64,000 nt of DNA from Candidatus Entotheonellaceae bacterium (GCA_965238075.1 OZ250173.1:512001-576000), one strand, 5' to 3'. Positions 1 to 41,445 are shown, numbered from the stretch's first letter. Numbers and translations: made by a program. The notes: a model not told the origin generated them from the sequence alone.

Positions 1-171
1 CATGTACTGCTGCTCGGTGATCGTGAGAGCGGCATCCGGCATCATGTTCAGCAGGCCGATGTGGAGCTCGCGGATGTCTTGCGACATGGCCCGGTCCAGG
101 CTCAGGATGTCGTAGCCCCCTTGCCGTAACCGGTCGAAAGTGGGCAGATTGGTATGCGCCACGAGGGGCAT
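1..171 (-). CDS. metA: Homoserine O-succinyl/acetyltransferase, 5' part (runs off window start)
   Basis: Manual translation from ATG 171: MPLVAHTNLPTFDRLRQGGYDILSLDRAMSQDIRELHIGLLNMMPDAAL, the HTS/MetA N-terminal motif (QDIRxLxIxxLNxMP); GGAGGAG RBS upstream. Absent from the ORF track. Confidence 0.85.
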   Translation of the reverse strand, partial: MPLVAHTNLPTFDRLRQGGYDILSLDRAMSQDIRELHIGLLNMMPDAALTITEQQYM

Positions 172-275
172 GCTCGACTCCTCCGGTTTGCCGCCAAGCG
201 GCGGGCGCTACGGGTCATTCCGAATCGCCGGGAAGTATACAGCAGAAGCCAAAAGGGATTCAAAGGAGCAGACCG

Positions 276-1997
276 ATGGAGACACCGCTGTCGCGTGAAA
301 CCCTGGCCGCCCAGGCTATGGGGGCGGTGGACCCGGAAACCGGCGCCCTGGTGCCGCCGCTGCACCCCGCCACCACCTACGAGATGCATCCCGACGGCTC
401 CCTGACCGACGGACGCGCCTACACCCGCGCCGACAACCCCACCTATGATCCCGCCGAAAAACTGCTCAACGTGCTGGAAAGCGGCGCCGGCTGCATCCTG
501 TTCGCCTCCGGCAACGCCGCCGCCACTGCGGTGTTCCAGGCGCTGCTGCCCGGCGATCACGTGCTGGTCAGCCGCATCCTGTACTGGGGCATTCGCAAGT
601 GGCTGGCTGAGTTCGCCGTCACCTGGGGTCTGGACGTCGAGTTTGTCGACGTGACGGACCTGGAAGCTTTGCAGGCCGCCATGCGTCCCGGCGTCACCCG
701 CCTGTTGTGGCTGGAGACACCGGCCAATCCGACGTGGGAGATCACCGACATTGCCGCGGCCGCCGAGATCGCGCACGCCGCGCAGGTTTGCGTGGCGGTG
801 GACAACACGGTACCGACACCGGTGCTGACGCGGCCCCTTGAACTGGGCGCCGATTTGGTGGTGCACTCGGCAACCAAGTATCTCAACGGCCACAGCGACG
901 TGCTGGCCGGCGCGGTGGTGACGGCACGGCTGGACCCGCTATGGGAGCGCATCCGCTCGTGGCGCCGCAATGCCGGGGCGATGCTGGGGCCGTTCGAGGC
1001 ATGGTTGCTGCAGCGCGGCATGCGCACCCTGTTCGTCCGCGTGCAGCGCGCCTCGGAAACGGCGCTGACGCTAGCGCAGCAGTTGCAGAGTCACCCGGCC
1101 CTCAAGGCGGTGCTGTATCCAGGATTGCCCTCGCATCCGGGCCACGAGACGGCGGCACGGCAGATGCAAGGCGGATTTGGCGGCATGCTGTCGATCCGGG
1201 TTGCCGGCGGGGCGGAGCAGGCCTTGGCCGTAGCCGCGGCGGCGCGGGTGTTCAAGCGCGCCACGTCGCTCGGTGGGGTGGAGAGTCTCATCGAACACCG
1301 GTTGAGCACCGAAGGTCCGTCTTCGCCCGTGCCGGGGGATCTCTTGCGGCTGTCGGTCGGCCTGGAGACGCCGGAGGACCTGTTGGCGGATCTGACGGCT
1401 GCGCTCGATGCCTCCAGGCGTGTACGCGCCACTTCCGCTGCAAAGCCCGCTCCAACCGAGGCGGCGCCTGAAGTCGTAACGAAAGTACGGGACGTGGTGG
1501 AACGCAGTGTGGCGCCGCTGATCATCGCGCGCGGCGGCAAGGTACGGCTGGTGTCGGTCGACGACGGCATCGTCACCCTGGAGGCGAGCGGGTCCCCGGG
1601 TGCCATTCTGCCAGTTGAAAAGCACCTGAAGACGCTGCTGTGCGGCACGGTTGCGGAGGTCACGGATGTGCGGCTGGTGTGGCCTGGGAATAAGGGGTCG
1701 GCTTGGCCGGATACGCATTCGGCGGCTCTGTCCGAGAGCGTGCAGACCATCCTCGACACGGAAATCAACCCGGCCGTCGCCGTGCACGGCGGACGGGTCA
1801 CCTTGATTGAGGCACAGGCTGACCGCGTCACCATCCGCCTTGAAGACGGCTGCCAAGGCTGCAATCTCGCCATCGTCACGGTCCGCCAGGGCATCGAGCC
1901 CCTCCTGCGCGCTCGCTTGGGGCGACCTGTCGCCGTCATTGACGCCACCGATCATGCTGCCGGTACAGCGCCCTTCTTCACGCCGTCAAAGCGGTGA
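276..1997 (+). CDS. Cys/Met metabolism PLP enzyme (cystathionine gamma-synthase / sulfhydrylase type) fused to two NifU_C (NfuA-like) domains
   Basis: YTRADNPT, ETPANPT, VDNT, PLP lysine motif HSATKYLNGHSDV, ATSLGGVESL; after a Pro/Ala linker two NifU_C-like repeats, the second with CQGC and DATDH..G..PFF; AAGGAG RBS. Confidence 0.85.
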   Translation: METPLSRETLAAQAMGAVDPETGALVPPLHPATTYEMHPDGSLTDGRAYTRADNPTYDPAEKLLNVLESGAGCILFASGNAAATAVFQALLPGDHVLVSRILYWGIRKWLAEFAVTWGLDVEFVDVTDLEALQAAMRPGVTRLLWLETPANPTWEITDIAAAAEIAHAAQVCVAVDNTVPTPVLTRPLELGADLVVHSATKYLNGHSDVLAGAVVTARLDPLWERIRSWRRNAGAMLGPFEAWLLQRGMRTLFVRVQRASETALTLAQQLQSHPALKAVLYPGLPSHPGHETAARQMQGGFGGMLSIRVAGGAEQALAVAAAARVFKRATSLGGVESLIEHRLSTEGPSSPVPGDLLRLSVGLETPEDLLADLTAALDASRRVRATSAAKPAPTEAAPEVVTKVRDVVERSVAPLIIARGGKVRLVSVDDGIVTLEASGSPGAILPVEKHLKTLLCGTVAEVTDVRLVWPGNKGSAWPDTHSAALSESVQTILDTEINPAVAVHGGRVTLIEAQADRVTIRLEDGCQGCNLAIVTVRQGIEPLLRARLGRPVAVIDATDHAAGTAPFFTPSKR

Positions 1998-2152: not shown

Positions 2153-3544
2153 ATGACGCAAGGATACGACCCGGATGGCGAGCGGCTGCCGATCAAGGTG
2201 GATTCAACGTCGAACGGCGAATTCGTACCGATTCTGCTGAATGTGAGGCAGCGGGAAGCGAATCGTCTGGCGCGGCAGCAGGCGGCGGAGAATGCCAAGC
2301 GGGTGGGCATGGGGCGCCGGGCGTTTCTGGTCTCGGCGTGCGGCGCGGCGAGCACGTTGTTGGCGTTCAACGCCGTCAACGCTGCGGCGGGCAACCGGGG
2401 CGGCGCGTTCGAGCTGACCGCCGAGGCAGCCGTCGACCCGGAGGCGGCAGCCCAAGCGTTGGGCGGCACAGAGTTCATCTTCGACGTGCAGGGACACTTC
2501 ATCGGCGAGGCGGCGTTACGGCCCGGCAGCCCGCGCGGACCGAAGAATTTCATCAAGGACGTGTTTCTCGACAGCGATACCGACATGATGGTGCTGTCGT
2601 TCGTGCCGTCGCGCCGGGACAGCGAGCCGCTGACCATCCACGAGGCCGACGCGGTGCGGCAGATGGTGGACGACCTGGAAGGGTCGCACCGCCTGCTGCT
2701 GCACGGGCGGGTCAACCCCAATCAAGCCGGCGACATTGAAGGCATGGACGAATTGGCCGAACGCTGGGGCGTTTCCGCCTGGAAGACCTACACGCAGTGG
2801 GGACCCGACGGCCGGGGCTATTTTCTGTCCGACCCGGACACCGGCATTCCGTTCATCGAGAAAGCGCGCCGCCTGGGCGTCAAGGTCATCTGTATCCACA
2901 AAGGCATTCCATTCGGCGGGCGTTCGTACGAGCACAGCCTGTGCGACGACGTGGGCGTAATCGCCAAGCGCTTCCCAGACGTGAGTTTCATCATTTACCA
3001 TTCGGGCTGGGTGCCGGGCCAACCGGAACGGGCCTACGAGCCGAACGCCAAGCGGGACGGCATCGACTCGCTGGTGCGCTCGCTGCTGGACAACGACGTG
3101 CCGCCGAACAGCAACGTTTACGCCGAGCTCGGCAGTACCTGGCGGGGTGTGATGGGCGACCCGGATAGCGCCGCCCATTGCCTGGGCAAGCTGTTGAAAT
3201 ACGTGGGGGAAAACAACGTCTTGTGGGGAACGGATTCCATCTGGTACGGCTCGCCGCAAGACCAGATTCAGGCCTTTCGCACCTTCCAGATCGCGCCGGA
3301 GTTCCAGGAGCGCTACGGCTATCCCGCGATAACGCCCACCCTGCGCGCCAAAGTCTTCGGCCTCAACGCCACCAAGCCGTACAGGATCAGCGCCGACGAA
3401 GTGCTGGAACGGGCCAGCCGTGACGCCATCGCCGCCCGGCGCTTTGCCTACGCGGAAAACCCCGATCCGCACTTTCTCACCTTCGGACCGAGAACCCGCC
3501 GCGAGTTCAATCGGCTTGTTCGCTTGCACGGTGGTTTCGTGTAG
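2153..3544 (+). CDS. Amidohydrolase family (Amidohydro_2) protein with Tat-like motif
   Basis: DVQGH, CIHKG, IIYHSG, VYAELGS, LWGTDSIWYGSPQ motifs; RRAFL plus hydrophobic stretch near residue 55; GAGGAGG RBS. Confidence 0.8.
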   Translation: MTQGYDPDGERLPIKVDSTSNGEFVPILLNVRQREANRLARQQAAENAKRVGMGRRAFLVSACGAASTLLAFNAVNAAAGNRGGAFELTAEAAVDPEAAAQALGGTEFIFDVQGHFIGEAALRPGSPRGPKNFIKDVFLDSDTDMMVLSFVPSRRDSEPLTIHEADAVRQMVDDLEGSHRLLLHGRVNPNQAGDIEGMDELAERWGVSAWKTYTQWGPDGRGYFLSDPDTGIPFIEKARRLGVKVICIHKGIPFGGRSYEHSLCDDVGVIAKRFPDVSFIIYHSGWVPGQPERAYEPNAKRDGIDSLVRSLLDNDVPPNSNVYAELGSTWRGVMGDPDSAAHCLGKLLKYVGENNVLWGTDSIWYGSPQDQIQAFRTFQIAPEFQERYGYPAITPTLRAKVFGLNATKPYRISADEVLERASRDAIAARRFAYAENPDPHFLTFGPRTRREFNRLVRLHGGFV

Positions 3545-3808: not shown

Positions 3809-4225
3809 CTATGCCGGCTCGAACATGGGAAGCGCCACCGCGTCGGCGCCCTGATCCTCCCAACGCAGCCGTACCCGCATGCCGCATTTCACGTCCTGCA
3901 CCGGGTCCGCCACACCAACGATGTTCGACATCAGCCGGAAGCCCTCGTCGAGGTCTACGTACGCCACGGCGTAGGCGCCCAGGTCGGCAAAGGCCGGGTG
4001 GCGGCTTTGCATGATGACGCTGAAGGTGTACACCGTCCCCTCGCCTTTGGAGACGTGCCAGGTGGTATCGCGCCCGCCGCATTCGGGGCAGTGGCGGCGT
4101 GGGTAGAAGATGACGGCGTGACACCCGTCGCAGGTCTGATACGTCAGCTCACGGCGCTTGGTGGCGTCCCAGAAAGGCTGCGTATCCAGCTCGGGAAAGC
4201 GGGGTTGGGGTCTTGCTGCGGCCAT
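3809..4225 (-). CDS. DUF35 / ChsH2-like Zn-ribbon OB-fold protein
   Basis: PFW, CDGC...CPEC, GEGTVYTFS, AYVDLDEGFRLMSN; start moved to ATG 4225 (GGAGAG RBS). Confidence 0.9.
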   Translation of the reverse strand: MAAARPQPRFPELDTQPFWDATKRRELTYQTCDGCHAVIFYPRRHCPECGGRDTTWHVSKGEGTVYTFSVIMQSRHPAFADLGAYAVAYVDLDEGFRLMSNIVGVADPVQDVKCGMRVRLRWEDQGADAVALPMFEPA

Positions 4226-4277
4226 GGTCGTTTTCTCTCCTATGATGTGGCGGTATGCCAAACGGTTCGCGTCAGGA

Positions 4278-5468
4278 TCAGTCGGCAGCCAGAATGGTGA
4301 CCGCGGTGGCGTGGCGGGAACCGAGTTGGCCGCCGTTGCCTACCGCAACGGCCAGCTTGGCGTCGTTCACCTGCGAGCTGGACTCGCCGCGCAACTGTCG
4401 GGCGGCCTCGATCAGCAGAAAGATGCCGCGCTGCCCGGGGTGATTCGACGACAGCCCGCCACCGTCCGTATTCAGCGCCGGCTTGCGCGGGTCGTCGAAT
4501 CCCAGATGTCCCTCGCTCACGTACGCCCCACCCTCTCCCTTGGCGCAGAATCCCAGGTCTTCGATGAGGCACATGACGGTAATGCTGAACGAGTCGTAGG
4601 CCATCAGCACGTCGATTTCCGCGGGCGTCACGCCGGCTTCGCCGAACGCCGGCTTGGCAGCCTGCGCCCCGGCGCTGACGGTGATGTCGCCGCCGTTCTC
4701 GCGGTACTTGGTCGCCTCGCCGGTGCCGATGATCCATACCGGCTTCTTACGGGCGTTGCGGGCAACCTCGGGGGACGCGATGACCACCGCGCCGCCGCCG
4801 TCGGAAACCATGCAGCACTCCAACAGGTGCAGGGGATAGGCGATCAGGCGCGATTCCAGAACGTCGCTGACCGTAATCTCGCGCACGCCGACGAACTGCA
4901 GGTCGGTCATGGCCTTCACGGCTTCCGGGTTGCGCATGGCGTGGCGGCGCGTGGTCACGGAGATGTGCGCGAACTGCTCGTTCGTCGTGCCGTATTGGTG
5001 CATGTGACGGTTCTTGACCATGGCGTAATTGCCGATGAGGGTCAGGCCCCACGGGTCTTCCATATTGTTGACGAACGTCGCCGGCCCCGCGCTGGTGGCG
5101 CCCGCGGTGCCGATGGCTCGGCGGTCCGAGTGGGCAGTGGCGCCGTATGTCAACAGAGCAACGTTGCACTTGCCCGCGGCGATCATGCTGAGGGCGTGGT
5201 TGGCCTGAAACTCGAAGGAACTGCCGCCGACGTAGGTGGTGTCGATGAGCCGGGGCTTGAGGCCGAAATACTCCGCAATGGCCAGCCCGCTGATGCCCTG
5301 ATCGCCGCCGGTGTCGTACACCGCGTCGACGTCCTGCCAGCTGAGCCCGGCGTCTTCGAGGCTGCGCGCGGCGCACTCTGCCTTGATTTGCAGGGCGCTG
5401 ACACTGCCGTCCACGCGCAAGGGATATTCATAAATTCCAACGATAGCGGCGTCTCTCCGCTGCGCCAT
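4278..5468 (-). CDS. Thiolase-like protein (SCP-x / Ltp2 type)
   Basis: AAIVGI, CCMVSDGGGAVV, YDSFS, LNTDGGGLS, EAARQLRGE; adjacent DUF35 partner. Confidence 0.88.
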   Translation of the reverse strand: MAQRRDAAIVGIYEYPLRVDGSVSALQIKAECAARSLEDAGLSWQDVDAVYDTGGDQGISGLAIAEYFGLKPRLIDTTYVGGSSFEFQANHALSMIAAGKCNVALLTYGATAHSDRRAIGTAGATSAGPATFVNNMEDPWGLTLIGNYAMVKNRHMHQYGTTNEQFAHISVTTRRHAMRNPEAVKAMTDLQFVGVREITVSDVLESRLIAYPLHLLECCMVSDGGGAVVIASPEVARNARKKPVWIIGTGEATKYRENGGDITVSAGAQAAKPAFGEAGVTPAEIDVLMAYDSFSITVMCLIEDLGFCAKGEGGAYVSEGHLGFDDPRKPALNTDGGGLSSNHPGQRGIFLLIEAARQLRGESSSQVNDAKLAVAVGNGGQLGSRHATAVTILAAD

Positions 5469-5656: not shown

Positions 5657-7576
5657 ATGACCGACCTTCTCGTCGCAGAGCCACCCGAAACCACTCGGAC
5701 CGTGCCAGCGGGAGCTTCCCCCATGGCGGTGCTGTCGCAGACCCGCAGTTTCAAGGATCTGGACCGGGCGACCCTCGAAGTCCTGGTGGCCGCAGCCGAT
5801 ACCCACCGCATTGAAGCCGGACGCGCCCTGTTCCGCGAGGGCGAGCCGTTCGGCAACATCGTGTACGTCCTGTACGACGGCGCCATGCGCCAATACCGAT
5901 CCACCGGCTTCGAATGCGAGGTGCACCAGGGCGACTTCCTGGCCCTGGCCAACTACGTGGACCGCGCGCCGTTCGGCTCCACCGTGGAAGCCCGCAGCGG
6001 TTGCGTCGTCCTCGGCCTGGCGGCGGAAACGTTGGAGCAGCTCGAGCGCAATTACCCCTCGCTGTTCAATTGCCTGAACCGCATCATCGCCCACAAACTG
6101 CGCGCCCGCAGCCCGGTGCGCGACATCAACCGCGGCGCCCTGGCGCAGCCGGTGCGCAGCATCATGAGCAGGCCCGTCACCTGCAGCCCCGACACACGGC
6201 TACGCGACGCCCTGACCCTGATGCGCCAGCGTAGCATCGGCGGCCTGGTGGTCACGGACGACGCCGACCGTCTGCTCGGAATCCTCACCCGCGCCAGCCT
6301 CGCCGAGGCGGTGCTCTTGCAGGAAGCGGGTGCGGCCGACGCGGTGGTGCCAGCGGCCTGCCAGCAGGCCCACACGGTGGAGCCGAATACGCCGCTGTGG
6401 CAGGTTCAGGAAATCCAGCAGCACTTCGCCACCAAGTACGTCGTTGTCGTGGATCAGGACGCTCCGGTCGGCGTGGTGGCCCAGAGCGACATCCTGCGAA
6501 CGCTGATTGCCTCGCCGGGCGTGCTGACGCCGCACGTGGCGCAATCCAACGACCTGCAGGAACTCGTCGAGTTGAAGTCGCGTCTCGTCGAAGAGGCCGT
6601 CGACATCCGGGAAGCCAATCGCTGGGCGCGCGCCGCGGTGCGCTTCCTGAGCGAAACCCATCTGGCCATCCAGCGCCGGGTCGTCGCCCTCAGCCTCGAT
6701 TGGATGCGTGAACAGGGACACGGCGAGCCGCCGGTGCCGTTCGCCCTCCTTATCATGGGCTCCGGCGGCCGCAAGGAAATGCTGCTCGACCCGGACCAGG
6801 ACAATGGCCTCATCCTGGCCGACGTGCCGCAGGCGCACGAGCCGCCCGCGCAACAGTGGTTCGAGCGCTTCAGCAACCACCTGAACGAGGGCTTGGCACA
6901 GGTCGGCTACCCGCTGTGCCCCGGCGGCATCATGGCGCGCAATCCCGTTTACCGGCACACGCTGACGCAGTGGCAGGAACAGGTGACGTCGATCGCCGAC
7001 CACCCCACCGAGGCGGCAGCGCGATGGTCCAACATCGTCTTCGACTTCAACACCTTATACGGCGACGACACGCTCACTGCGGCCCTATGGCGGCACGTGC
7101 TGGAGACCACCGCGGCGCATCCTCGGCTGTTCACCCGCATGGCCGCGGACGACGCGCGGGGGCGGCCGGCGCTGGGCTTTTTTCACCAACTCGTCGCCAC
7201 CACCTGGGACGGCGACGGCGCGCATATCGACCTGAAGCGCAACGGCCTGCGGCTGATCGCCGACGCAACGCGCATTTTCGCGCTGCAGGCGGGCGTGAGG
7301 GCGCAGAACACCAGCGATCGGCTGGCCGGGCTGGTGCGGCTGGGAACGTTTTCCGAGGCGTTCAGCACCTCGGTGGGCGACGCTTACGAGGCGCTGCTGG
7401 ATCTTCTGCTGGCGCACCAGATCGAACAAGCGCGGGCGGGCGAGGCGTTCAACACGCTGATTGATCCGAAGGCTCTGACCGAGCAGAATCGCGCCACGCT
7501 GCGCCTCGCCATGCGTATGGTGAAGCGCCTGCAGGACCGCTTGCAGGAAAACTTTGGCGTCGCCTACATCGACTAA
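5657..7576 (+). CDS. cNMP-binding / CBS / DUF294 nucleotidyltransferase-like protein
   Basis: N-terminal cNMP-like fold, CBS pair, MGSGGRKEM..DQDNGL, CPGGIMARNP, IDLKRNG. Confidence 0.88.
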   Translation: MTDLLVAEPPETTRTVPAGASPMAVLSQTRSFKDLDRATLEVLVAAADTHRIEAGRALFREGEPFGNIVYVLYDGAMRQYRSTGFECEVHQGDFLALANYVDRAPFGSTVEARSGCVVLGLAAETLEQLERNYPSLFNCLNRIIAHKLRARSPVRDINRGALAQPVRSIMSRPVTCSPDTRLRDALTLMRQRSIGGLVVTDDADRLLGILTRASLAEAVLLQEAGAADAVVPAACQQAHTVEPNTPLWQVQEIQQHFATKYVVVVDQDAPVGVVAQSDILRTLIASPGVLTPHVAQSNDLQELVELKSRLVEEAVDIREANRWARAAVRFLSETHLAIQRRVVALSLDWMREQGHGEPPVPFALLIMGSGGRKEMLLDPDQDNGLILADVPQAHEPPAQQWFERFSNHLNEGLAQVGYPLCPGGIMARNPVYRHTLTQWQEQVTSIADHPTEAAARWSNIVFDFNTLYGDDTLTAALWRHVLETTAAHPRLFTRMAADDARGRPALGFFHQLVATTWDGDGAHIDLKRNGLRLIADATRIFALQAGVRAQNTSDRLAGLVRLGTFSEAFSTSVGDAYEALLDLLLAHQIEQARAGEAFNTLIDPKALTEQNRATLRLAMRMVKRLQDRLQENFGVAYID

Positions 7577-7596
7577 GGCGTGGGGGAAAGGAAAGC

Positions 7597-8325
7597 ATGC
7601 GAGCCAACGAGCCCGTGGTTATCCTCATGGACAAACTTCGCGCCCGCATCATGGGGCGGCGACATGACCCGCTGTTGGCGGACCCGCAGTGTTATGCCGT
7701 GCACACGCGCATCCGCGCCCTCAAGCCGAAAGCCCTCACTTGCCTGCCAGTCGAGCAGGCCCGGTTCGTGGTCCTCGACACCGAAACCACCGGCTTCAAA
7801 GTCTACGGCGGGGACGAAATCGTTTCCATCGCCCTGCTCGAACTGCACGGCCTGGAGCCCACCGGACGCGAGCTCAACACCCTGGTCAATCCCGGACGCC
7901 CCATCCCAGCCGCTTCTACCGCGGTTCACAACATTTGCGACGCGGACGTCGCCCACGCTCCGATGATCGAAGAGGTGCTGCACGACGTGACGCGATTCAT
8001 CGGCGAAAGCGTTCTGGTCGGGCATCACGTGCCGTTCGACCTGCGCTTCCTCAACAAGTCACTGCACCGGAAATTCCGCTGCCGCCTGCGCAATCCCTGG
8101 CTCGACACCATGCTGATGTACGTGGCGCTCAGCGGCCGGCTGGGCCACTACACCCTGGAGGAGGTGGCGCGATTTTGCGGCGTTGACATCCGCGACCGCC
8201 ACACCGCCCGCGGTGACGCTCTGATGACCGCCGCCATGTTCAAAACCCTCGCCTCCTATCTCACCACCGGCCATTGCACGGTTTCCAGGCTGATCAAATG
8301 CCAGACGCAGGTGGGATTGTTCTGA
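7597..8325 (+). CDS. DEDDh 3'-5' exonuclease (PolIII epsilon-like)
   Basis: VLDTETTG, VGHHVPFD, WLDT, HTARGDA; usual DUF294 neighbour. Confidence 0.88.
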   Translation: MRANEPVVILMDKLRARIMGRRHDPLLADPQCYAVHTRIRALKPKALTCLPVEQARFVVLDTETTGFKVYGGDEIVSIALLELHGLEPTGRELNTLVNPGRPIPAASTAVHNICDADVAHAPMIEEVLHDVTRFIGESVLVGHHVPFDLRFLNKSLHRKFRCRLRNPWLDTMLMYVALSGRLGHYTLEEVARFCGVDIRDRHTARGDALMTAAMFKTLASYLTTGHCTVSRLIKCQTQVGLF

Positions 8326-23497: not shown

Positions 23498-23643
23498 TGC
23501 TACAACGGGGTGCTGCACGAGGCGCTGGAAGCTTTTTGGCGGCCCTGGATCAATGTTGCCTGGCTGACGTCACCCGCCGGAAGTCGCCCCTGATGCAACT
23601 ATTGACCTCTCCCACTGATCTGCGAGCAGAATCTCAAGCGTAA
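23498..23643 (+). pseudogene. Possible C-terminal remnant of an Rrf2/NsrR-type regulator
   Basis: GVLHEALEAF / LAALDQCCLADV across a 1-nt shift in a T run near 23533. Confidence 0.35.
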
Positions 23644-24299
23644 GCCCCGGTTCGGTGCCGGACGATCTCGCCCTCGACGGTATAAATCACATCCTCAGCT
23701 ACGTTGGTCGCCAAGTCGCCGATGCGCTCCAGATGGCGGGCCACCGACAGCGTGTGCACCAAGCGCTCCACGTCGTCTGGGTTCGCGCGAATCTGATCCT
23801 GAATTTCCCGATGGATCTCTCGATTAAGGCGGTCCACTGCTCGGTCGTTGGCGCACACTTGGCGGGCCAGGGTGGTGTCGTCCTGCACTAGGGCGTCCAG
23901 GCTATGCCGCACCATCAACTCGACCTCGCGTGCCATGGCCGTCAGGCTTGATGGCAGCGTCTGGCGCGGATGCTGGGACAGATACTCGGCACGCCGCGCA
24001 ATGTTGACCGCCTTATCCGCCATGCGTTCCAGGTCGTTATTGATCTTCAGCACGGCGACGACAAACCGCAAGTCCACTGCTACCGGCTGATACAACGCAA
24101 GCAGCTTCAGGCAGTCCTCCTCCACCTCGACTTCCATTTGGTCCACGTCGTTGTCCCCTTCAACAACTTCGAGCGCCAGCGTCGCATCGTGTTTCACCAC
24201 CGAATCGATGGCCTTGGCGATGCGTTCCTCCACCATGGCGCTCAACCCCAAGAGCTTCTGCTTGAGGGCCTCGATTTCTCGCAGGAAATGCTGTGCCAC
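23634..24299 (-). CDS. phoU: Phosphate signalling protein PhoU
   Basis: QPVAVDLR, NDLERMAD, LERIGDLATNVAE; follows pstB. Confidence 0.93.
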   Translation of the reverse strand: MAQHFLREIEALKQKLLGLSAMVEERIAKAIDSVVKHDATLALEVVEGDNDVDQMEVEVEEDCLKLLALYQPVAVDLRFVVAVLKINNDLERMADKAVNIARRAEYLSQHPRQTLPSSLTAMAREVELMVRHSLDALVQDDTTLARQVCANDRAVDRLNREIHREIQDQIRANPDDVERLVHTLSVARHLERIGDLATNVAEDVIYTVEGEIVRHRTGAYA

Positions 24300-24364
24300 T
24301 GGACCTCCCCTTTTTTTCGCGCCCGCCGGGCGATACCGCGCACCCGGCCGCGCAGGACGGCGGT

Positions 24365-25183
24365 TTATCCGAAACGGCCCGTGATGTAGTCCTGGGTCTG
24401 CTTCTTGGCGGGAGACCTGAATATGTTGGCCGTCTCGCCAAACTCGATCAGCTCACCGAGGTACATGAAGGCCGTGTAATCCGACACTCGCGACGCCTGC
24501 TGCATGTTGTGCGTCACGATCAGCACCGTGTAGTTCTGCTTCAACTCGTGAATCAGGTCCTCGACGCGCCCGGTGGCGATGGGGTCCAGCGCCGAGCACG
24601 GCTCGTCCATGAGAATCACGTCCGGGTTCACCGCGATGGCGCGCGCGATGCACAGGCGCTGCATCTGGCCGCCCGAAAGCTGCAACGCTGATTCGCGCAG
24701 CCGGTCCTTCGCCTCTTCCCACAACGCCGCGCCGCGCAGACTGCGCTCGACCGTTTCGTCAAGCTGCGCCTTGTTGGTCACACCGGCAATGCGCAGGCCA
24801 TAGATGACATTTTCATAGATGGACTTGGGAAACGGGTTGTACTTCTGGAACACCATGCCAATCCGCCGCCGCAGGCGAATGACGTCCAGCGTCGGCACAT
24901 TGACGTTCTCGCCGTCCAGCTCGATCACGCCGTCCACCCGCACGTTCTCTATCAAGTCATTCATGCGGTTGAAGCACCGCAGCAGTGTCGATTTGCCGCA
25001 GCCCGACGGCCCGATGAACGCCGTCACCTGATTGCGCGGCACCAACATGCTGACGTCCTGCAACGCCATGACGCTGCCGTAGTAGAAATAGAGGTTCTCC
25101 ACCCTGATGATCGGATCGAGGATCTTGACCTCCTCCTCGACCAATTCGTCCGGCGCTTCCAACGGCTGATCTGGCAGTGCCAT
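24365..25183 (-). CDS. pstB: Phosphate ABC transporter ATPase
   Basis: [44 protein letters not shown]. Confidence 0.95.
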
Positions 25184-25200
25184 GCGATGTCCTCTCCTGA

Positions 25201-26868
25201 TTAAAACACCCCGGTCGCATACTTGCGCCGCAGCCGGTCACGAATCCAGATGGCCCCGACGTTGAGCACCATGACGAGGGCGATCAGCAGCAGGGTGGTC
25301 GCAAACACCATGGGTTTCGCCGCCTCGGAATCGGGCGACTGAAAGCCGAGATCAAAAATGTGAAACCCCAGATGCATGAACTTGCGATCCAGGTGAACAA
25401 AGGGGAAAACGCTGTCAACAGGCAGCGTTGGCGCCAGCTTCACGACGCCCACGAGCATCAATGGCGCCACTTCGCCGGCGCCGCGCGCCATGGCCAGAAT
25501 CAGCCCGGTGAGAATACCGGGAGCCGAGGCGGGCAGCACGATGCGTTGCATGGTCTGCCATTTCGAGGCGCCGCAGGCCAGCGAGCCCTCGCGCATGCCG
25601 CGCGGCACCGCGGCCAGGGCCTCCTCGGTCGCCACGATCACCACCGGCACGGTCATCAGCGCCAGAGTCAGCGACGCCCAGATCATGCCGCCGGTTCCAA
25701 AGGTCGGTGTCGGCAGCGCATCATGGAAGAACAATTCGTCGATGCTGCCACCGACAAAATACACAAAGAACCCGATTCCGAACACCCCGAAGACGATAGA
25801 AGGCACCCCGGCGAGGTTGTTAACCGCGATGCGCACGGTGCGCACGATGATGCCCTGCTTGGCATACTCGCGCAGGTACATGGCCGCCAGCACGCCGAAC
25901 GGCGTTACGGCCATGCTCATCAACACGGTCATGACGAAGGTGCCGAAGATGGCCGGGAAGACACCGCCCTCGGTGTTCGCCTCGCGGGGTTCATGGCTCA
26001 GAAAGGCCCACATGTTATGCGCGAACAGCCCAAGGCGGCTCCAGAAGCCAAGCTGGTTGGGAAAGTAATAGCCGACGATCTGTCCGAGCGGCAAGACGAC
26101 CTCGTCGCCGCTCGGGATACGGTACACGAGTTGGTTTTCGTCCTGCAGCCGTCGCAATTCCCGCGCCTCGCCGGCGAGATTCTCGTAACGCGCCTGCAAG
26201 GACGCCATAGCGTCCTCGATCGCCAAATAGGCGGCGGCGCCCGGCGGCGCGCCCTCGCGCTCCAGGGTATGCCGTTGCAGGCGCAACTGCGTCATCCTGG
26301 CGTTGATGGCGCCGATGGCGCTGTGTTCGAGGCGCTTGATCTCGCGCCGCCGCGCGGCAACCTCGCGTACCAGGTCTTCCAAACGGTCGGCAAAGCCGGG
26401 ACTATCGGACGGCCATTCATCCTCGCCTTGAATCCGCAGCGCCAGCGGCTCGCCAATAGCATCGCCGTACTCCAGACGCTCGATGCTCATCGCCTGCTCC
26501 GGATAACGCCACGCCACGATATCGTCGATATCGACGTAACGGAAGCTGAGCCCGTAGCGCTCCTTGTTGCCCACAAACAACTGCCATTCCACCTGCTGAC
26601 GCTGAGAAGCGGCTGGCGCCGTTTTAAGCTGCCGCTTCACCACCTCGCCAGCCAGAATCGGCGCCCCTGCAAGCCGCGCCGGGCTCTCGCTGGCCAGTTC
26701 CAGGTAAACGACGCGCTTGGGCCAGAACGCCGTCACGCCGTTGATCAGGATGAGCCCCAGCAGCGATACCACCATGACCAGCCCGACAGTCAGGCCCATC
26801 GCCGTGATCCAAACCATCGGCTCGCCCGACAGACTGCTTCGAGGCTTTGAGGATTCCCGCGACCGCAT
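25201..26868 (-). CDS. pstA: Phosphate ABC transporter permease PstA (extended N-terminus)
   Basis: [32 protein letters not shown] loop, [10 protein letters not shown]. Confidence 0.92.
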
Positions 26869-26886
26869 GGCGCTCGCCTTCCGTGG

Positions 26887-29193
26887 TTATACCGTCTTGT
26901 ACTTTTCGCGCAGATGCTGCCGCAGCAGTTCCGCCAGCGTATTGATCAGGAACGTCATCAGGAAGAGAAGCATGGCACCCAGGAACAGGGTGCGGTACAG
27001 CGTGCCGAACTGGGGCGCCTCAGGCAACTCCACGGCGATATTGGCCGACAGCGTGCGCATGCCGGAAAAGATGTTCCAGTCGACAATCGGCGTGTTGCCG
27101 GTGGCCATGAGCACGATCATCGTCTCGCCCACGGCGCGCCCCAGCCCGATCATCATGGCGGAAAAAATGCCCGCCGAGGCGGTCGGCAGCACGATGCGAA
27201 TCGCCGTCTGCCAGCGGCTGGCGCCCAGGGCCAGCGAGCCAGCCTTCAATTCGGGGGGCACGTTCGACAACGCATCCTCGGCGATGGTGAAAATAATGGG
27301 AATCACCGCGAACCCCATGATAAAACCGACCACCAGCGAGTTTCGTTGCTCGAAGCTCAGACCCGTTGCCTGCACCCACCACAGACGGAAGTCGGCAACA
27401 CGTTCTCCGGTCGCGGCATCGGTGACCACGAACACCAAGCGCTCGACAACCGGACCCAGCAACCAGGCGCCGTATGCGGACAGAACCAGGAGCGGAAACA
27501 CCGCCAGAAACTCGTACCCCGGCTTCACCCACCGGTTCGTCACGGTGTCGGGCATCGACGACCACACGTAGCCCATGAGCAGGGCCACGGCCGGCACCAG
27601 CATCACGATCAGCACGAACGACACCACTTTGGTTTCCAGTATCGGAGCCAGCCATAGGGCCGCCAGAAAGCCCAGAATAACCGACGGCAGCGAGGCCATG
27701 ATTTCCATCGTCGGCTTGACGATGGTGCGCAGATTGGGGTGCAGGAATTGCGAGGTGTACATGGCGGCCAGCAGCGCCAGCGGCACGGCGAACACCATGG
27801 CATAGAAGGTGCCCTTCAGGGTGCCGAAAATCAGCGGTATCATCGACAGCTTGGGCTCGAAATCGTCCGTGGCGCCGGTGGATTGCCAAGTGTAGGCGGG
27901 CGCCTGCCCGCCCTCGTACCACACCTTACCGAACAGCGCCGCCATCCCCGCCTCCGGGTGGGGATCGCTTAACCGATAGACATGCAGGTCACCCCCTGTG
28001 TCCAGCGCCAAAACGCGGTCGTATTTGCCGCTCAGCCGCGCCAGGCTCACATCGTACGACAGGTCCATCTCGAGCCGGGTACTGGCCGTGGTACTGTAAC
28101 GCAGGCCCAGCCACGAGGGGGTGCCGATCAGGAAGGATTTGTTGCGCAGGCTTGGGGCGTAGAACGTCGCCGCCCCGGGCAGCGGCGGCAGGGTCTTGGT
28201 CTGGCCGAAGAGGCGGGTGTCGCCGTCCGGCGGCACGAACAGGCTGAAGACACGACTGGCGCCCTCGGTGTTGGTGAACAGCAGAGACACGCCGCCAAAG
28301 ACGAAATCCATGGAAGCAATGGCGGACTGGCCGAGGTCTTGGAAAGGCGTGAAGACTTGTCTGAGAACCGCCTCATCAACGTCTTCGCCGGCCTCAAAAT
28401 AGAAGTAAAAGACCTGGCCGACAGTCGTGGCCACCACGACGCTGTTAGCCGTCTGCGGCGTCACGCCAATCATCTGGGGAGTGCCCGACAGCAACGGCGT
28501 CAGATCGTACGTCGCCTTGAGCACGGTTTTGCCGGTACCCAGCAACGTTTGTTTCTGTTCCAGCAAGGCGGCGTGAACCTGCGGCGCGCCGTCCACGTCC
28601 TGCAACACGGCGACGAGCTTTTGCGTACCCGAATCCCCATAGGCCACCTGGGCAATCGGCACGCCGGGCTGGCCAAGAGCAACAAACGCCCCGGCCTCGG
28701 GCTGGGCCACAATAGTGCGGACGTCGCCGTCGTACACCGGCTCGTAATTCACGTCGACGAGTGCGAACTCCCCCTGCGTGGTAGCAAACACCACCCGTTG
28801 GGTCTGTTGATCGTAAGCGTAGGCGGAAAAAATGCGGGTTTCTTGAAAGGCGGGGTCGGCCTGGAACGTGCCGCGTTCACCCTCGAGGTCGACGAAGGAA
28901 AGTACGCCGTCCTCGTTGACGAGCATGGGTAGCGCCGCCCATTCGTCGACGCCCAACACCTTGGCGTCCGATATACCGGTCGACACCGTGCGCAACGGCC
29001 GGATGCTGGCGCCCTGGAAAAGCGGCAGGATCTGCGACAGGATGAACACGAAAATGCCCAGCACGGCGATGATGACGCCCAGCCCCCCGATGGTGATGAA
29101 CCACGTCATGCACCAATCGATCAACAGGGTCGATCTCGCCGTTCCGAACTGTCCTGCCGATCCCACCCGGGGCTCCACCGGCGCCACTGCCAT
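26887..29193 (-). CDS. pstC: Phosphate ABC transporter permease PstC (large extracytoplasmic domain)
   Basis: WQSTG..DDFEPK, PLIFGTLK, MASLPSVILG, RAVGETMIVLMATGN; start set by GAGGAG RBS. Confidence 0.9.
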   Translation of the reverse strand: MAVAPVEPRVGSAGQFGTARSTLLIDWCMTWFITIGGLGVIIAVLGIFVFILSQILPLFQGASIRPLRTVSTGISDAKVLGVDEWAALPMLVNEDGVLSFVDLEGERGTFQADPAFQETRIFSAYAYDQQTQRVVFATTQGEFALVDVNYEPVYDGDVRTIVAQPEAGAFVALGQPGVPIAQVAYGDSGTQKLVAVLQDVDGAPQVHAALLEQKQTLLGTGKTVLKATYDLTPLLSGTPQMIGVTPQTANSVVVATTVGQVFYFYFEAGEDVDEAVLRQVFTPFQDLGQSAIASMDFVFGGVSLLFTNTEGASRVFSLFVPPDGDTRLFGQTKTLPPLPGAATFYAPSLRNKSFLIGTPSWLGLRYSTTASTRLEMDLSYDVSLARLSGKYDRVLALDTGGDLHVYRLSDPHPEAGMAALFGKVWYEGGQAPAYTWQSTGATDDFEPKLSMIPLIFGTLKGTFYAMVFAVPLALLAAMYTSQFLHPNLRTIVKPTMEIMASLPSVILGFLAALWLAPILETKVVSFVLIVMLVPAVALLMGYVWSSMPDTVTNRWVKPGYEFLAVFPLLVLSAYGAWLLGPVVERLVFVVTDAATGERVADFRLWWVQATGLSFEQRNSLVVGFIMGFAVIPIIFTIAEDALSNVPPELKAGSLALGASRWQTAIRIVLPTASAGIFSAMMIGLGRAVGETMIVLMATGNTPIVDWNIFSGMRTLSANIAVELPEAPQFGTLYRTLFLGAMLLFLMTFLINTLAELLRQHLREKYKTV

Positions 29194-29288
29194 GGCATCC
29201 ACTCCTCAAGACGGGAAAGGCAGGAAGCGAAAACCCTCCCCCCGCCTCTTTGCGTACAGTCCGACAACGAATCTCCGTCAGACAGGCA

Positions 29289-30266
29289 TTACTGGAGCAT
29301 CGTCATCGTATCAACAGACACCACGGCCGGCAAAGGGAAATACCCGTCTTTGACGACGATTTCCTGACCCGCCTTCGAGTTGATGAAATTCAGGAACTCG
29401 TAGGTCAGCTTGTCCAGCTCGGCGCCGGGCCTCTTGTTAACATAGATATACAGGAAACGCGCCAGCGGGTAGTCGCCGCTCAGGCAATTCTCCAGGGTCG
29501 GCTCGTACAGCGGACCCTGGACGGCCAGCGGCAGCGCACGCACGCTGGAAGTCTTGTAACCGATACCCGAGTAGCCGACGCCGCCCAGGTCGCTGGCCAC
29601 GCCCTGCACCACGGAGGAGGAACCGGGCTGCTCTTTCACGGTGTCCTTGTAATCGCCCTTCTTCAGCGCCACGCTCTTGAAAAAGCCATAGGTGCCGGAG
29701 GCGCTGTTACGACCGTACAGGGAAACCGGCCGCGCCGCCCAGTCAGCGGTCAGGCCGGCGTCGCCCCAGACCGCGAGATCCGTGCCGCCGCCCTTGTAGG
29801 TGCTAGAGAAAATGCTGTCAATCTGCTTCAGGGTCAGACCTTCTACCGGGTTGTCCTTGTGCACGAACACCGCCAGGGCGTCGATGGCGACCTTCACCGG
29901 CGTCGGCTTGAAGCCGAATTTCTGCTCAAACCTGTCGAGTTCCGAGGACTTCATCGGACGGCTCATGGGGCCCAGCTGCGCGGTGCCTTCGATCAGCGCC
30001 GGCGGGGCCGTGGAGGAGCCCTTGCCCTCGATCTGGATGTTCACGTTCGGATAAACGGCCCGGAAAGCCTCGGCCCACAGGGTCATGAGGTTGTTCAGTG
30101 TATCGGAGCCGATGCTGTTGAGATTGCCGGAAACGCCGCTGGTGCGCTCGTACTGGGACAGACCGGCGTCCACTTCCACCTGCGCCGAAGCCGTCATCGC
30201 CGCACCGAGCACCAGCCCGCCGGCGAGCACGAGGGAGACAAAACGCCTCGCAAGAACCGTCTTCAT
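29289..30266 (-). CDS. pstS: Phosphate-binding protein PstS
   Basis: Signal peptide, [35 protein letters not shown]. Confidence 0.93.
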
Positions 30267-30353
30267 GGTCATTGCTCCTTTAGATAGGGAGGGGGAGTTC
30301 AATTGGCGCCCTGCCCATGCAAGGTCGCCGTCTTCGTACAGCATGCCTGCCCG

Positions 30354-30394
30354 CTGCAAAGATGCAGTTAGGACAGAACGAAATTTGCGTCAGG
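30354..30394 (-). promoter_or_regulatory. Candidate Pho-box-like repeats upstream of pstS
   Basis: Minus strand CCTGACGC, TTTCGTTC, CCTAACTG, CTTTGCAG at exact 11-bp period; degenerate. Confidence 0.35.
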
Positions 30395-30411
30395 CCGATT
30401 GCTCCGCCGCG

Positions 30412-31101
30412 CTAGAGTGCCTTGAAGCGATAACCGATGCCGCGCGTGGTTTCAATCATGTCGCGAAACCGCCCGAGCTTGCGGCGCAAGGCCGCAATGT
30501 GCACGTCCACCAAGCGCTCGGTGACACTGATGTCCGTGCCGCGGGCCCAATCGACGATTTGATAGCGGGTGAAAACCCATCCCGGCCGCTGCGCCAGGAG
30601 TTGCAGAACGCGGAATTCCGTCGGGGTCAGACGGATGGATTGGTTGTAGACGCGCACGTCGTGCTCACCCGGCGAAATGACCAGACCGCCCCGAACGATC
30701 ATTTCCGCGTCGGGAACGGGGTCCGTCCGCCGGCGCCGCAGGGCCGCCTTGATGCGTGCCAGAAGTTCACGCGGGCTGAAGGGCTTGGTGATGTAATCGT
30801 CCGCCCCCACTTCCAGGCCAGTCACGATGTCGGCCTCCTCACCCCGCGCCGTCAGCATGACAATCAGAATGGCGGATGTCTGCACGTCGCCCTTCAGCGT
30901 CTTGCAGACATCCAGGCCATCCATACCCGGCAGCAACACGTCCAGAACAACCAGATCGGGCCGCGCCGAACCCACCGCAGCCATCGCTTCCTCGCCCGAG
31001 CCGACACACGTTACGTCGTAGCCGGCTGCGGCGAGGTTGTACTGAACCAACTCCAGGAGGTCGGGTTCGTCATCGACCACCAGGATATGAACGCGGTTCA
31101 T
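30412..31101 (-). CDS. phoB: OmpR/PhoB family response regulator
   Basis: VVDDE, LDVLLPG.DG, LTARGEE, ADDYITKPF, winged helix LTPTEF..VDVHI..LRRK; pst context. Confidence 0.8.
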   Translation of the reverse strand: MNRVHILVVDDEPDLLELVQYNLAAAGYDVTCVGSGEEAMAAVGSARPDLVVLDVLLPGMDGLDVCKTLKGDVQTSAILIVMLTARGEEADIVTGLEVGADDYITKPFSPRELLARIKAALRRRRTDPVPDAEMIVRGGLVISPGEHDVRVYNQSIRLTPTEFRVLQLLAQRPGWVFTRYQIVDWARGTDISVTERLVDVHIAALRRKLGRFRDMIETTRGIGYRFKAL

Positions 31102-31184
31102 CGCCTTCCCCCCTTTCGGGGCCTCTACGCGATGGGACGCTCGCACGGCTTGTGGAGAGCTGACAATGAGCGACATGGCTCCGC

Positions 31185-40644: not shown

Positions 40645-41181
40645 GATCTGAGAGTTACGATTTTCGGAGACTGTAATGACATAAACGACAAAAACGCTGA
40701 TCATCAGTGGAGGCTCAAGGAAGACGCGGTTTCGCTCCTCATACCAGGAACGTTTGTCCCCGGAATTGCGGCTTATTGCGCCCGCCATGTCGGCAGGGAC
40801 GAAGATCTTATTGCGGCAGCGACACTTTGGAATGAACGGCACAAAATATTTCTCCAACAAGTCATTCACGTCATACAGACAGAAGGAGGACTAACAGACC
40901 GCGAGAAGAGCGCGATCGATAAGTTGGCTTTTGTTATGGTAGAGAGAGAAGTGGGAGGGTCGGGCGACACGGCGAGTTATTGTCGGGGTGCATTTCGGGC
41001 AGACTGAAATCATTAACTCGGGTCAATTTGATCTTGACAAGATGGAGCAGACGAGAGCCACGCTCGGCCGAGTAATGGGTGAATAGGCCTGCTCCGGCCT
41101 CTTCTTTTGGCTGTTGACCTAGCCCCTTGAATCCGGGCCGCGGTGATGTAGAGTCCATTGGAGTTGGGAGGAAAGGGCTCT

Positions 41182-41445
41182 ATGAAGCGCAGATTAACGG
41201 ACCAGCAGATCATCAGCATGATCCGCGAGCAAGAGGCGGGGTTGAAGACCTCGGAGGTGTGCCGCAAGCATGGCATCAGCGACGCCACCTTCTACAAGTA
41301 CAAGGCCAAGTTTGGCGGTATGACCGTCTGCAATGCGCGAAGACTGCGCGCCCTGGAGGCAGAAAACGCCAAGCTCAAGCGGCTCTTGGCCGAGGCCATG
41401 CTGGACAACTCTGCCCTGAAGGACCTGACGACAAAAAACTTCTGA
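41182..41445 (+). CDS. IS3 transposase OrfA (HTH)
   Basis: QIISMIREQEAG..VCRKHGISDATFYKYKAKFGG..LEAENAKLKRLLAE. Confidence 0.88.
   Translation: MKRRLTDQQIISMIREQEAGLKTSEVCRKHGISDATFYKYKAKFGGMTVCNARRLRALEAENAKLKRLLAEAMLDNSALKDLTTKNF

Follow-up and report, generated by a model that had tools for sequence, protein, structure and literature searches.

A PLP enzyme of the Cys/Met metabolism family joined to a two-repeat Nfu module in a Candidatus Entotheonellaceae bacterium

Why should an enzyme of sulfur amino acid metabolism carry an iron-sulfur (Fe-S) cluster carrier on its own polypeptide? The question is raised by a gene at positions 276 to 1997 of the forward strand in a stretch of 64,000 nucleotides from a Candidatus Entotheonellaceae bacterium (GCA_965238075.1 OZ250173.1:512001-576000), the whole of which is here called the window. 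The gene lies head-to-head with metA and encodes a pyridoxal 5'-phosphate (PLP) enzyme of the Cys/Met metabolism family that continues into two tandem Nfu-type repeats. A preliminary description, made from the sequence alone, had named the enzyme part MetB/MetZ-type and the tail a degenerate plus an intact NifU repeat. Tentatively, we favor the reading that the protein is an O-acylhomoserine-using enzyme that forms a C-S bond and whose tethered Nfu module supplies the sulfur or gates the reaction.

One polypeptide and a conserved fusion family

The fused gene (276..1997, forward strand) is one uninterrupted open reading frame (ORF) of 573 codons plus a stop codon; it starts with ATG, and neither a stop nor a frameshift occurs in the linker, which bears out the single frame of the preliminary description. 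Read from the sequence, AAGGAG (263-268) stands 7 nt 5' of the start codon. The G+C content at third codon positions is 0.84 in the first 384 codons, which encode the PLP part, versus 0.76 in the remaining codons for linker and tail, and both values are typical of the other probable genes in the window. The Pfam profile PF01053 (Cys_Met_Meta_PP) matches residues 8-377 over profile positions 1-380 of 381, with an expectation (E) value of 5.5e-110 and 367.9 bits (cut-off, 27). PF01106 (NifU) matches two stretches of the tail, best at residues 489-554, and scores 75.1 bits with the whole protein and 80.7 bits with the tail alone (cut-off, 27).

From its N terminus, the protein consists of a PLP domain (residues 1-380, 276..1415), a Pro/Ala-rich linker (residues 381-397, 1416..1466) with predicted local distance difference test (pLDDT) values below 50, an Nfu repeat without a Cys-x-x-Cys (CxxC) motif (repeat 1; residues 398-470, 1467..1685), a second Nfu repeat (repeat 2; residues 482-556, 1719..1943) with CQGC at residues 526-529 (nt 1851-1862), and a conserved C-terminal tail, ATDHAAGTAPFFTPSKR (1944..1994). 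Within the PLP domain lie the codon of K201 (876..878), the presumed Schiff-base lysine, in HSATKYLNGHSD, and the active-site loop ESLIEHRLSTEGPSSPVP (residues 337-354, 1284..1337), which is 8 residues shorter than the canonical ESLIEHPAIMTHASVP... and shows gaps against the solved relatives 8sf4 and 3qhx. CQGC occurs only in the second of the two PF01106 stretches; the order of a CxxC-less and an intact repeat in the preliminary description thus holds, as does its NfuA-like D-x-T-D-H ... PFF end. These data show that the gene encodes a single polypeptide in which a fold-type-I PLP enzyme of the gamma family, a flexible linker and an Nfu-type carrier module are joined.

Homologues of the same size and architecture are known. 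A search with residues 385-573 against 5.8 billion proteins, directed at candidates with lengths near 573 amino acids, returned 150 matches. All 120 listed matches carry both PF01053 and PF01106, the combination for which the preliminary description had proposed a Pfam search; 105 of them are 570-597 residues long, and the other 15 are shorter and lie mostly on short contigs. The idea that the fusion is an artefact, with two genes either misassembled or read through, has next to no probability left, and we regard it as already refuted: the same architecture and length recur in 105 of the 120 listed database clusters, which stem from several sources and from contigs as long as 7.4 Mb, NCBI and ENA have both contributed the exact window protein to the protein collection, and the fused proteins form one well-supported clade (see below). 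An open linker, fused relatives and a tail that matches NifU were thus found at the three points at which the preliminary description had declared itself vulnerable.

The source names of the fused homologues are few, namely, "cystathionine gamma-synthase" (JGI) and "PLP-dependent transferase" (NCBI), and a UniRef title on them begins "NIF system FeS cluster a...". Those named by NCBI come from Dehalococcoidia, Methylomirabilota and Candidatus Entotheonella. In the ESM Atlas, from which the window protein itself is absent, the cluster retrieved with one homologue (P0096) has 200 members, with PF01053 in 100% and NifU in 95%; its commonest phylum is Actinomycetota, the phylum being known for 43 of the 200. 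No fused form was found in the plasmid collection, where 0 of 1375 matching records cover at least 80% of the query.

For residue conservation, the window protein was aligned with 88 of the 120 listed homologues (alignment A2, 89 sequences); the 15 short homologues, 15 full-length but near-identical ones among P0003-P0018, P0098 (which contains a scrambled stretch) and P0027 were omitted. Mean identity to the window protein is 0.86 in the PLP domain, 0.34 in the linker, 0.66 in repeat 1, 0.23 in the segment between the repeats, 0.72 in repeat 2 and 0.82 in the C-terminal 17 residues, and the segment equivalent to the linker varies from 25 to 52 residues. Both cysteines of CQGC, C526 and C529, are kept in 89 of 89 proteins. 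Invariant columns of repeat 1 are A418-R-G420, at the start of ARGG (418-421), and G439-S-P-G-A443. The C terminus is conserved as D556-x-T558-D559-H560 ... P566-F-F ... K572-R573, with D556, T558, H560, P566, K572 and R573 invariant. On the evidence of these sequences, the fusion family is real, conserved in many bacteria of several phyla and kept under constraint.

Both domain families are already known, and so is the fusion itself, which is present in databases under generic names. The literature that we searched, outside of which fall subscription journals and database-only annotations, holds no description of the PLP-Nfu architecture, matching the remark in the preliminary description that it was not recognized as described.

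Origin and fold of the Nfu module

Repeats 1 and 2 are 25% identical to each other (E = 0.001), the ASGSPG of the former being aligned to the DGCQGC of the latter. An exhaustive search with the tail against 1.84 billion representatives gave 1425 matches at E <= 0.001, and 32 of these were scanned with Pfam. Five are fragments of the fused family, 14 combine Nfu_N (PF08712) with NifU, 11 contain NifU only and two carry a rhodanese domain; among the 14 Nfu_N-type proteins, nine have two NifU stretches. In an alignment of 18 rows (A3), CxxC is absent from the first repeat in 18/18, and the second repeat has C-x-G-C in every row and CQGC in 17. The D-x-T-D-H ... P-(Y/F)-(Y/F) end is common to the tail and the Nfu_N-type carriers, and G-C-Q-G-C and D-x-T-D-H ... 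P vary little or not at all over the 18 rows. These carriers have about 280-300 residues, arranged as PF08712, CxxC-less Nfu and CQGC Nfu, and share the whole tail at 26-35% identity; one of their clusters is named "Fe-S cluster biogenesis protein NfuA" by JGI. Their N terminus, however, is Nfu_N, whereas the window protein has a 380-residue PLP enzyme in that place and no PF08712 match. The comparison shows that the tail module came from bacterial Nfu_N-type carriers and that the PLP enzyme stands where these have Nfu_N. The word "degenerate" for the first repeat has to be given up in the sense of decay, since ARGG and GSPGA are conserved in 89 sequences and the two-repeat module pre-exists in Nfu_N-type carriers.

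Two further groups of tail relatives were observed. One (P0156) is a free-standing protein of 177 amino acids with a CxxC-less and a CQGC repeat, has four members, all of 177 amino acids, on contigs of up to 26.8 kb, and could be a split counterpart of the tail. The other comprises Nfu fusions of different composition (P0220, P0260, P0191 and P0291), in which rhodanese is combined with NifU, rhodanese with an A-type carrier and NifU, or Nfu_N with NifU and DUF6522.

At the level of structure, repeat 2 matches the CxxC domains of 2z51, 2jnv, 1veh and 2m5o. A model of the tail built on alignment A3 (pLDDT, 87.1) predicts the alpha-beta-beta-alpha-beta pattern twice, and a full-length AlphaFold2 model shows it for repeat 1 as well. 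In a Foldseek comparison of the tail model with the PDB, the best match was 2z51, the Arabidopsis CnfU with its two domains (167 columns, E = 3.8e-09), followed by the C-terminal domain of human NFU1; 2m5o matched with a TM score of 0.68 and a root mean square deviation of 2.2 over 79 columns. The full-length AlphaFold2 model reached a mean pLDDT of 68 and a predicted TM score of 0.60, too weak for placing the tail on the PLP body, and a fold search with it found again only Cys/Met enzymes, themselves about 370-400 residues long. The structure prediction proposed in the preliminary description thus delivered the Nfu fold, twice in the tail, but not the position of the tail. A complex prediction of a PLP dimer (residues 1-384, two copies) with the tail (398-573) scored 0.03 against a mark of 0.32 and supports neither side.

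Several known carriers resemble the module in part. The plant plastid NFU protein 2z51, also the best PDB sequence match of the tail, has two tandem Nfu folds, one with and one without CxxC; the repeat order of the window protein is reversed relative to it, because in 2z51 the CxxC domain comes first, and unlike the window protein it contains no enzyme domain. Nfu domains bind a dimer-bridging [4Fe-4S] or [2Fe-2S] cluster and hand it over to apo-proteins, and the cysteine-poor, degenerate A-type domain of NfuA directs the carrier to its clients (PMC8593673). NfuA of E. coli and A. vinelandii likewise has a non-binding, cysteine-less domain ahead of a CxxC Nfu domain. Its degenerate domain is of the A-type, however, while that of the window protein is itself an Nfu fold; no match to the A-type domain PF01521 was obtained with the window protein at E <= 0.01 or with the tail alone at E <= 1. 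A third likeness is to the pairs NifS-NifU and IscS-IscU, in which a PLP enzyme of sulfur metabolism works with a partner whose last domain is of the Nfu type and is tethered by a variable linker, which in NifU presumably provides reach (PMC13066941). NifS differs in being a class-V aminotransferase with a persulfide-forming cysteine, encoded separately from NifU, whereas the window protein stays below the cut-off for PF00266 (class-V aminotransferase; 20.4 versus 21.5 bits) and has no such invariant cysteine.

The PLP domain and the short-loop clade

K201 is invariant in alignments A1 and A2 and is aligned to the lysine of HSTTKYLGGHSD in 8sf4 and 3qhx. In this family, the equivalent lysine is established as the one that forms the Schiff base with PLP. 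Also invariant in the 89 sequences of A2, and identical in 8sf4 and 3qhx, are D176, Y103, Y49, R51, S78, G79 and R358. Presumably, these residues play the roles usual for the family as ligands of PLP and the alpha-carboxylate, i.e., Tyr and Arg of the N-terminal loop, the SG-x-A phosphate loop, the stacking Tyr, the Asp at N1 and the Arg in LRLSVG. With nearly the full PF01053 profile covered and K201 invariant, the PLP domain is complete, as first described.

The best solved relatives of the domain are the Thermobifida fusca cystathionine gamma-lyase (CGL) 8sf4 (327 bits) and the Mycobacterium ulcerans MetB 3qhx (299 bits). Together with the NCBIfam model PRK07811, these share the PF01053 fold with the window protein at 45-47% identity over about 370 residues, and the PLP-binding motifs HS-x-TKYL-x-GHSD, ETP-x-NP, SG-x-AA and LRLSVG-x-E are common to the window protein and both structures. 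Unlike MetB and CGL, the window protein remains below the equivalog cut-offs, has YWGIRKW where canonical enzymes have YGGT(F/Y)R and has lost PAxMTHAS through an 8-residue deletion. Every PDB match of the window protein stops near residue 378-388, and its 190-residue Nfu module occurs in no solved Cys/Met chain. Of the label "MetB/MetZ-type," the assignment to the Cys/Met family therefore stands, while the narrower naming was too specific: no equivalog cut-off is reached, YGGTFR and PAxMTHAS are absent, and the domain sits in a clade of its own, in which no unfused member is accompanied by methionine genes.

This clade became apparent in a genome scan with the patterns ETPANP[TM]W and KYLNGHSD, which hit at least 599 stretches, mostly unfused relatives, and from which 80 loci were returned. 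In 77 of the 80, the frame stops within 39 residues past the aligned PLP domain, and they are therefore unfused. The sole complete fused locus among these 80, L001 from a metagenome-assembled genome (MAG) of Rhodobacterales, runs on for 209 residues and contains two NifU stretches. In L003, a gammaproteobacterial MAG, a Pro/Ala linker of ~85 residues is followed by the start of repeat 1 and then the contig end, and L068 breaks off inside the PLP domain. A tblastn search with the tail gave no match in 79 of the 80 genome loci or in two plasmid loci; hence, the unfused PLP genes of these loci are not accompanied by an nfu gene of its own frame.

A table of motifs over 95 rows separates 86 short-loop rows (20 fused and 66 unfused) from 9 canonical ones (L072-L080), which are 41-46% identical to the window protein. 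Short-loop rows have YW(G/A/S)xRxW at the stacking Tyr versus YGGTFR in canonical rows, DST-ATPVLTRP after the Asp versus DNTFATP, and an active-site loop EHRxSxEG...P that is 8 columns shorter than EHPAIMTHAS. A tree was computed for 87 rows, omitting three loci with matches of <300 residues and eight redundant fused rows. With the 9 canonical rows taken as the outgroup, it groups all 12 fused rows in a single clade (Shimodaira-Hasegawa-like approximate likelihood ratio, 99), which falls within a short-loop clade of 78 rows (support, 100). As far as sequences can tell, the data are consistent with a single origin of the fusion inside an uncharacterized short-loop clade of Cys/Met PLP enzymes. 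Its unfused members share the diagnostic motifs and have PLP domains 50-70% identical to that of the window protein, but lack both the Nfu module and a nearby metA. They are also found on plasmids of Rhodobacter, Cereibacter, Azospirillum and Ensifer (58-66% identity), and RefSeq/PGAP names them only "PLP-dependent aspartate aminotransferase family protein."

The surroundings of the unfused short-loop genes show some repeated neighbors. Same-strand glutathione S-transferase (GST) genes flank the PLP gene in L004, L014, L027 (on both sides) and L054, and an OsmC-family gene stands directly upstream of it in two different classes, at L035:542-1054 and at L081:5493-6002, in the latter case overlapping the PLP start by 8 nt. 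Short-chain dehydrogenase/reductase (SDR) genes occur near the PLP gene in several loci. The GST and OsmC neighbors hint at a functional connection between the short-loop clade and thiol proteins.

At thirteen positions, among them several within residues 221-232 (936-971), Q246 (1011-1013), and T345 and S349 (1308-1322), a residue that hardly varies in fused proteins is rarely seen in their unfused relatives. Five of these, P221, S228, W229, R231 and N232, fall on a single helix of the PLP domain, where the tail could dock. No cysteine is invariant within residues 1-380: C73 is present in 80 of 89 fused proteins and C172 in 44 of 89. In the motif table, position 73 is Cys in 18 of 20 fused versus 8 of 66 unfused rows; C73 was considered as a relay cysteine and rejected, as it is not invariant and sits in the strand preceding the phosphate loop.

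Fused-specific changes that gather on one helix, and two halves that are co-conserved on a flexible tether, would also be expected if an oxygen-, iron- or redox-sensitive cluster or dithiol in the tail only switched the PLP enzyme or stabilized its tetramer, without any donation or transfer. The labile, subunit-bridging nature of Nfu clusters (PMC8593673) fits such a purely regulatory role as well. On the other side, the module retains every feature of a transfer-competent carrier, including the TDH..PFF end of free-standing Nfu proteins. Moreover, we know of no precedent for an Nfu domain as a sensor, and we consider this explanation unlikely.

Gene neighborhood, candidate functions and implications

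The first 171 nucleotides of the window (1..171, reverse strand) hold the first 57 codons of metA, which continues beyond the window start. Their translation matches PF04204 (HTS, homoserine O-acyltransferase) at profile positions 1-53 with an E value of 1.6e-09, and homologues of the fragment are proteins of 354-365 amino acids named homoserine O-succinyltransferase. The divergent metA of the preliminary description is thus confirmed, and 104 nt (172..275) lie between the two head-to-head genes. One sigma-70-like site was found on the minus strand (263..234) versus a mean of 0.3 in shuffled sequences, a match to the consensus only. Rfam contains no family matching positions 1-400 at E <= 1, and none reaches its gathering score in the whole window.

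Whether this pairing recurs was assessed from equal contig sizes, comparing the 120 listed fused matches with 189 MetA matches. Seven sizes coincide (3038, 3396, 10934, 15966, 360423, 744688 and 4696293 bp), where ~1.04 would be expected by chance; the 3038-bp pair is counted as doubtful, because its two listed sources differ. For a contig of 3.0-3.4 kb, the presence of both a 1.7-kb and a 1.1-kb gene implies that the two are neighbors. A MetA search with P0295, which is close to the window MetA only in its N-terminal part (the next best match being 67% identical), added one size coincidence. Indirectly, these contig sizes suggest that metA linkage recurs in close relatives of the fused protein.

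The head-to-head pairing with metA is the reason why the PLP domain most likely uses the product of MetA. In the reading that we tentatively prefer, the PLP domain of this lineage would take O-succinyl- or O-acetyl-homoserine and form the C-S bond of homocysteine or cystathionine. Cys/Met enzymes are tetramers, and an Nfu cluster is held by a pair of CxxC motifs; two subunits might therefore bring their tails together and bind a putative bridging cluster ([4Fe-4S] or [2Fe-2S]) at CQGC, or else carry a reactive dithiol or persulfide there. This site would then hand reduced sulfur to the PLP active site or switch the enzyme according to Fe-S or redox status, with the CxxC-less repeat 1 acting as an adaptor, by analogy to the degenerate domain of NfuA. 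A more specific version has the CQGC persulfide or cluster sulfide serve as the direct sulfur nucleophile for the PLP-bound vinylglycine derived from O-acylhomoserine, the second cysteine releasing homocysteine; this we hold to be rather improbable. PMC13759103 provides two precedents for homocysteine sulfur from a dedicated protein partner: in Streptomyces, MetO-thiocarboxylate is used together with MetM, and the aspartate-semialdehyde sulfurtransferase system has NIL/ferredoxin and persulfide-forming parts. Carrier folds and chemistry of both systems differ from the Nfu module, and PMC13759103 contains 0 occurrences of NifU or Nfu.

A number of observations weigh against an O-acylhomoserine-using enzyme. 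None of the 25 listed NCBIfam models, which include the MetB, MetZ and MetY equivalogs, reaches its cut-off on the window protein: the best, PRK07811 (cystathionine gamma-synthase), scores 381.4 (cut-off, 513), TIGR02080 293 (504.55), PRK08133 290.6 (522), TIGR01325 280.9 (510.05) and TIGR01326 259.7 (495.1). The substrate is not readable from homology, because in place of the canonical active-site loop, EHPA-x-MTHAS, the window protein has EHRLSTEG with an 8-column gap. Its closest solved relatives include lyases (CGL) alongside synthases. The linkage of metA in relatives rests on equal contig sizes and not on read sequence. With the full-length MetA homologue P0293, tblastn found no match up to about 6 kb from the PLP gene in any of 82 loci, among them both divergent fused loci, L001 and L003, and all unfused ones. 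The synteny with metA that the preliminary description suggested checking thus holds in the window and probably in size-matched contigs of relatives, but not in L001, L003 or any unfused locus. In L001, the fused gene is flanked by genes for an S15 peptidase (divergent, upstream), serine hydroxymethyltransferase and a peptide ABC transporter, and in L003 by genes for a luciferase-like monooxygenase, a PNPOx-like protein and a TRAP transporter. Unfused members of the clade occur in varied contexts (GST, OsmC and SDR) with no methionine genes. Among the ORFs scanned in the 64-kb window, finally, there is no metB, metZ or metY, nor is there any other gene for methionine, cysteine or Fe-S assembly.

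The metA-free fused loci L001 and L003, as well as the position of 8sf4 as the best solved relative with several CGLs next, would also suit a self-contained, sulfur-mobilizing Fe-S carrier. Here, a CGL-like desulfhydrase acting on cysteine, cystine or homocysteine would feed its own Nfu module, which assembles a cluster and passes it to clients, analogous to NifS-NifU but with an enzyme from a different PLP family. The nearest relatives of the tail are Fe-S carriers with another domain at the N terminus, Nfu modules are also fused to rhodanese, a sulfur-transfer domain (P0220 and P0260), and the variable, flexible linker resembles that of the Nfu domain of NifU (PMC13066941). Such a carrier leaves unexplained the metA gene head-to-head in the window and the size-matched contigs in relatives, and no isc, suf or nif gene is found among the genes of the window or adjoining L001 and L003. 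The PLP domain also lacks an invariant cysteine able to carry a persulfide, and the class-V aminotransferase model stays below its cut-off (20.4 versus 21.5 bits). We regard this function as possible, although doubtful.

A different, non-methionine substrate, such as a cysteine S-conjugate or another amino acid substituted at its gamma or beta position, would make metA incidental and let the Nfu module serve that chemistry instead. The altered active-site loop and YW-x-x-R-x-W, which separate the clade from all named enzymes, are in line with it, as are the basal unfused members with same-strand GST genes (L004, L014, L027 and L054) or a preceding OsmC gene (L035 and L081) and the peptide-metabolism genes adjoining L001. 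It is made quite unlikely by the apparent metA pairing in at least three short contigs of relatives and by the retention of all residues known to hold PLP and the alpha-carboxylate. In L001, an ATP-grasp gene resembling L-amino-acid ligases (L001:7729-9216) begins 13 nt downstream of the fused gene. A C-S bond-forming enzyme that uses O-acylhomoserine and is supplied or gated by its Nfu module is our tentative preference. Sulfur delivery, sulfur donation for cluster assembly and redox coupling, the three functions offered in the preliminary description, all stay candidates.

The rest of the window contains pst, phoU and phoB, ppk1, polyphosphate glucokinase, copA, msrP, rho, prfA, prmC and hisBHF genes, among others. 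Downstream of the fused gene, 2153-3544 (+) encodes a 463-residue Amidohydro_2 protein that has no NCBIfam match and whose N terminus (MGRRAFLVSACGAASTLLAF...), read by eye, resembles a twin-arginine signal. A gene pair at 3809-5468 (-) encodes a ChsH2-like zinc-ribbon/OB-fold protein of the DUF35 type and a thiolase-like protein, and 5657-8325 (+) encodes a 639-residue DUF294 nucleotidyltransferase that also contains cNMP-binding and CBS domains and, 20 nt downstream of it, a DEDD 3'-5' exonuclease. At 23634-32468 (-), 36013-38151 (+) and 44255-45088 (-) lie a phosphate cluster with phoU, pstB, pstS and phoB and, nearby, genes for ppk1 and a polyphosphate-glucose phosphotransferase; the PstA (555 amino acids) and PstC (771 amino acids) of the cluster are unusually long, and a 427-residue ORF without a family match adjoins phoB. 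A 95-residue fragment of an IS3-family transposase (41158-41442, +) lies at about 39.5-44.2 kb in a stretch with short ORFs only, possibly the decayed remains of a mobile element.

Genes that have become fused usually encode functional partners. The one described here joins the two main uses of reduced sulfur, sulfur amino acids and Fe-S clusters, and may link methionine synthesis to Fe-S supply. Its function is easy to test, since the protein looks soluble, consists of one polypeptide and offers obvious point mutants (K201, C526 and C529). Should the C-S step be fed or gated by the Nfu module, this would be a new sulfur delivery to methionine synthesis in lineages such as Chloroflexota, Methylomirabilota, Actinomycetota and Candidatus Entotheonella, in which pathway predictors often leave gaps. 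If CQGC were itself the nucleophile, methionine synthesis would gain a new protein-bound sulfur donor, next to thiocarboxylate carriers and the persulfide system of the methanogen type, and for the first time an Nfu domain would act as a substrate-level sulfur relay instead of a cluster carrier. If, conversely, the PLP domain feeds the Nfu module, an Fe-S carrier would be loaded independently of a cysteine desulfurase. Either way, the fusion would offer a first functional handle on a large, specifically unnamed clade of Cys/Met PLP enzymes with an altered active-site loop.

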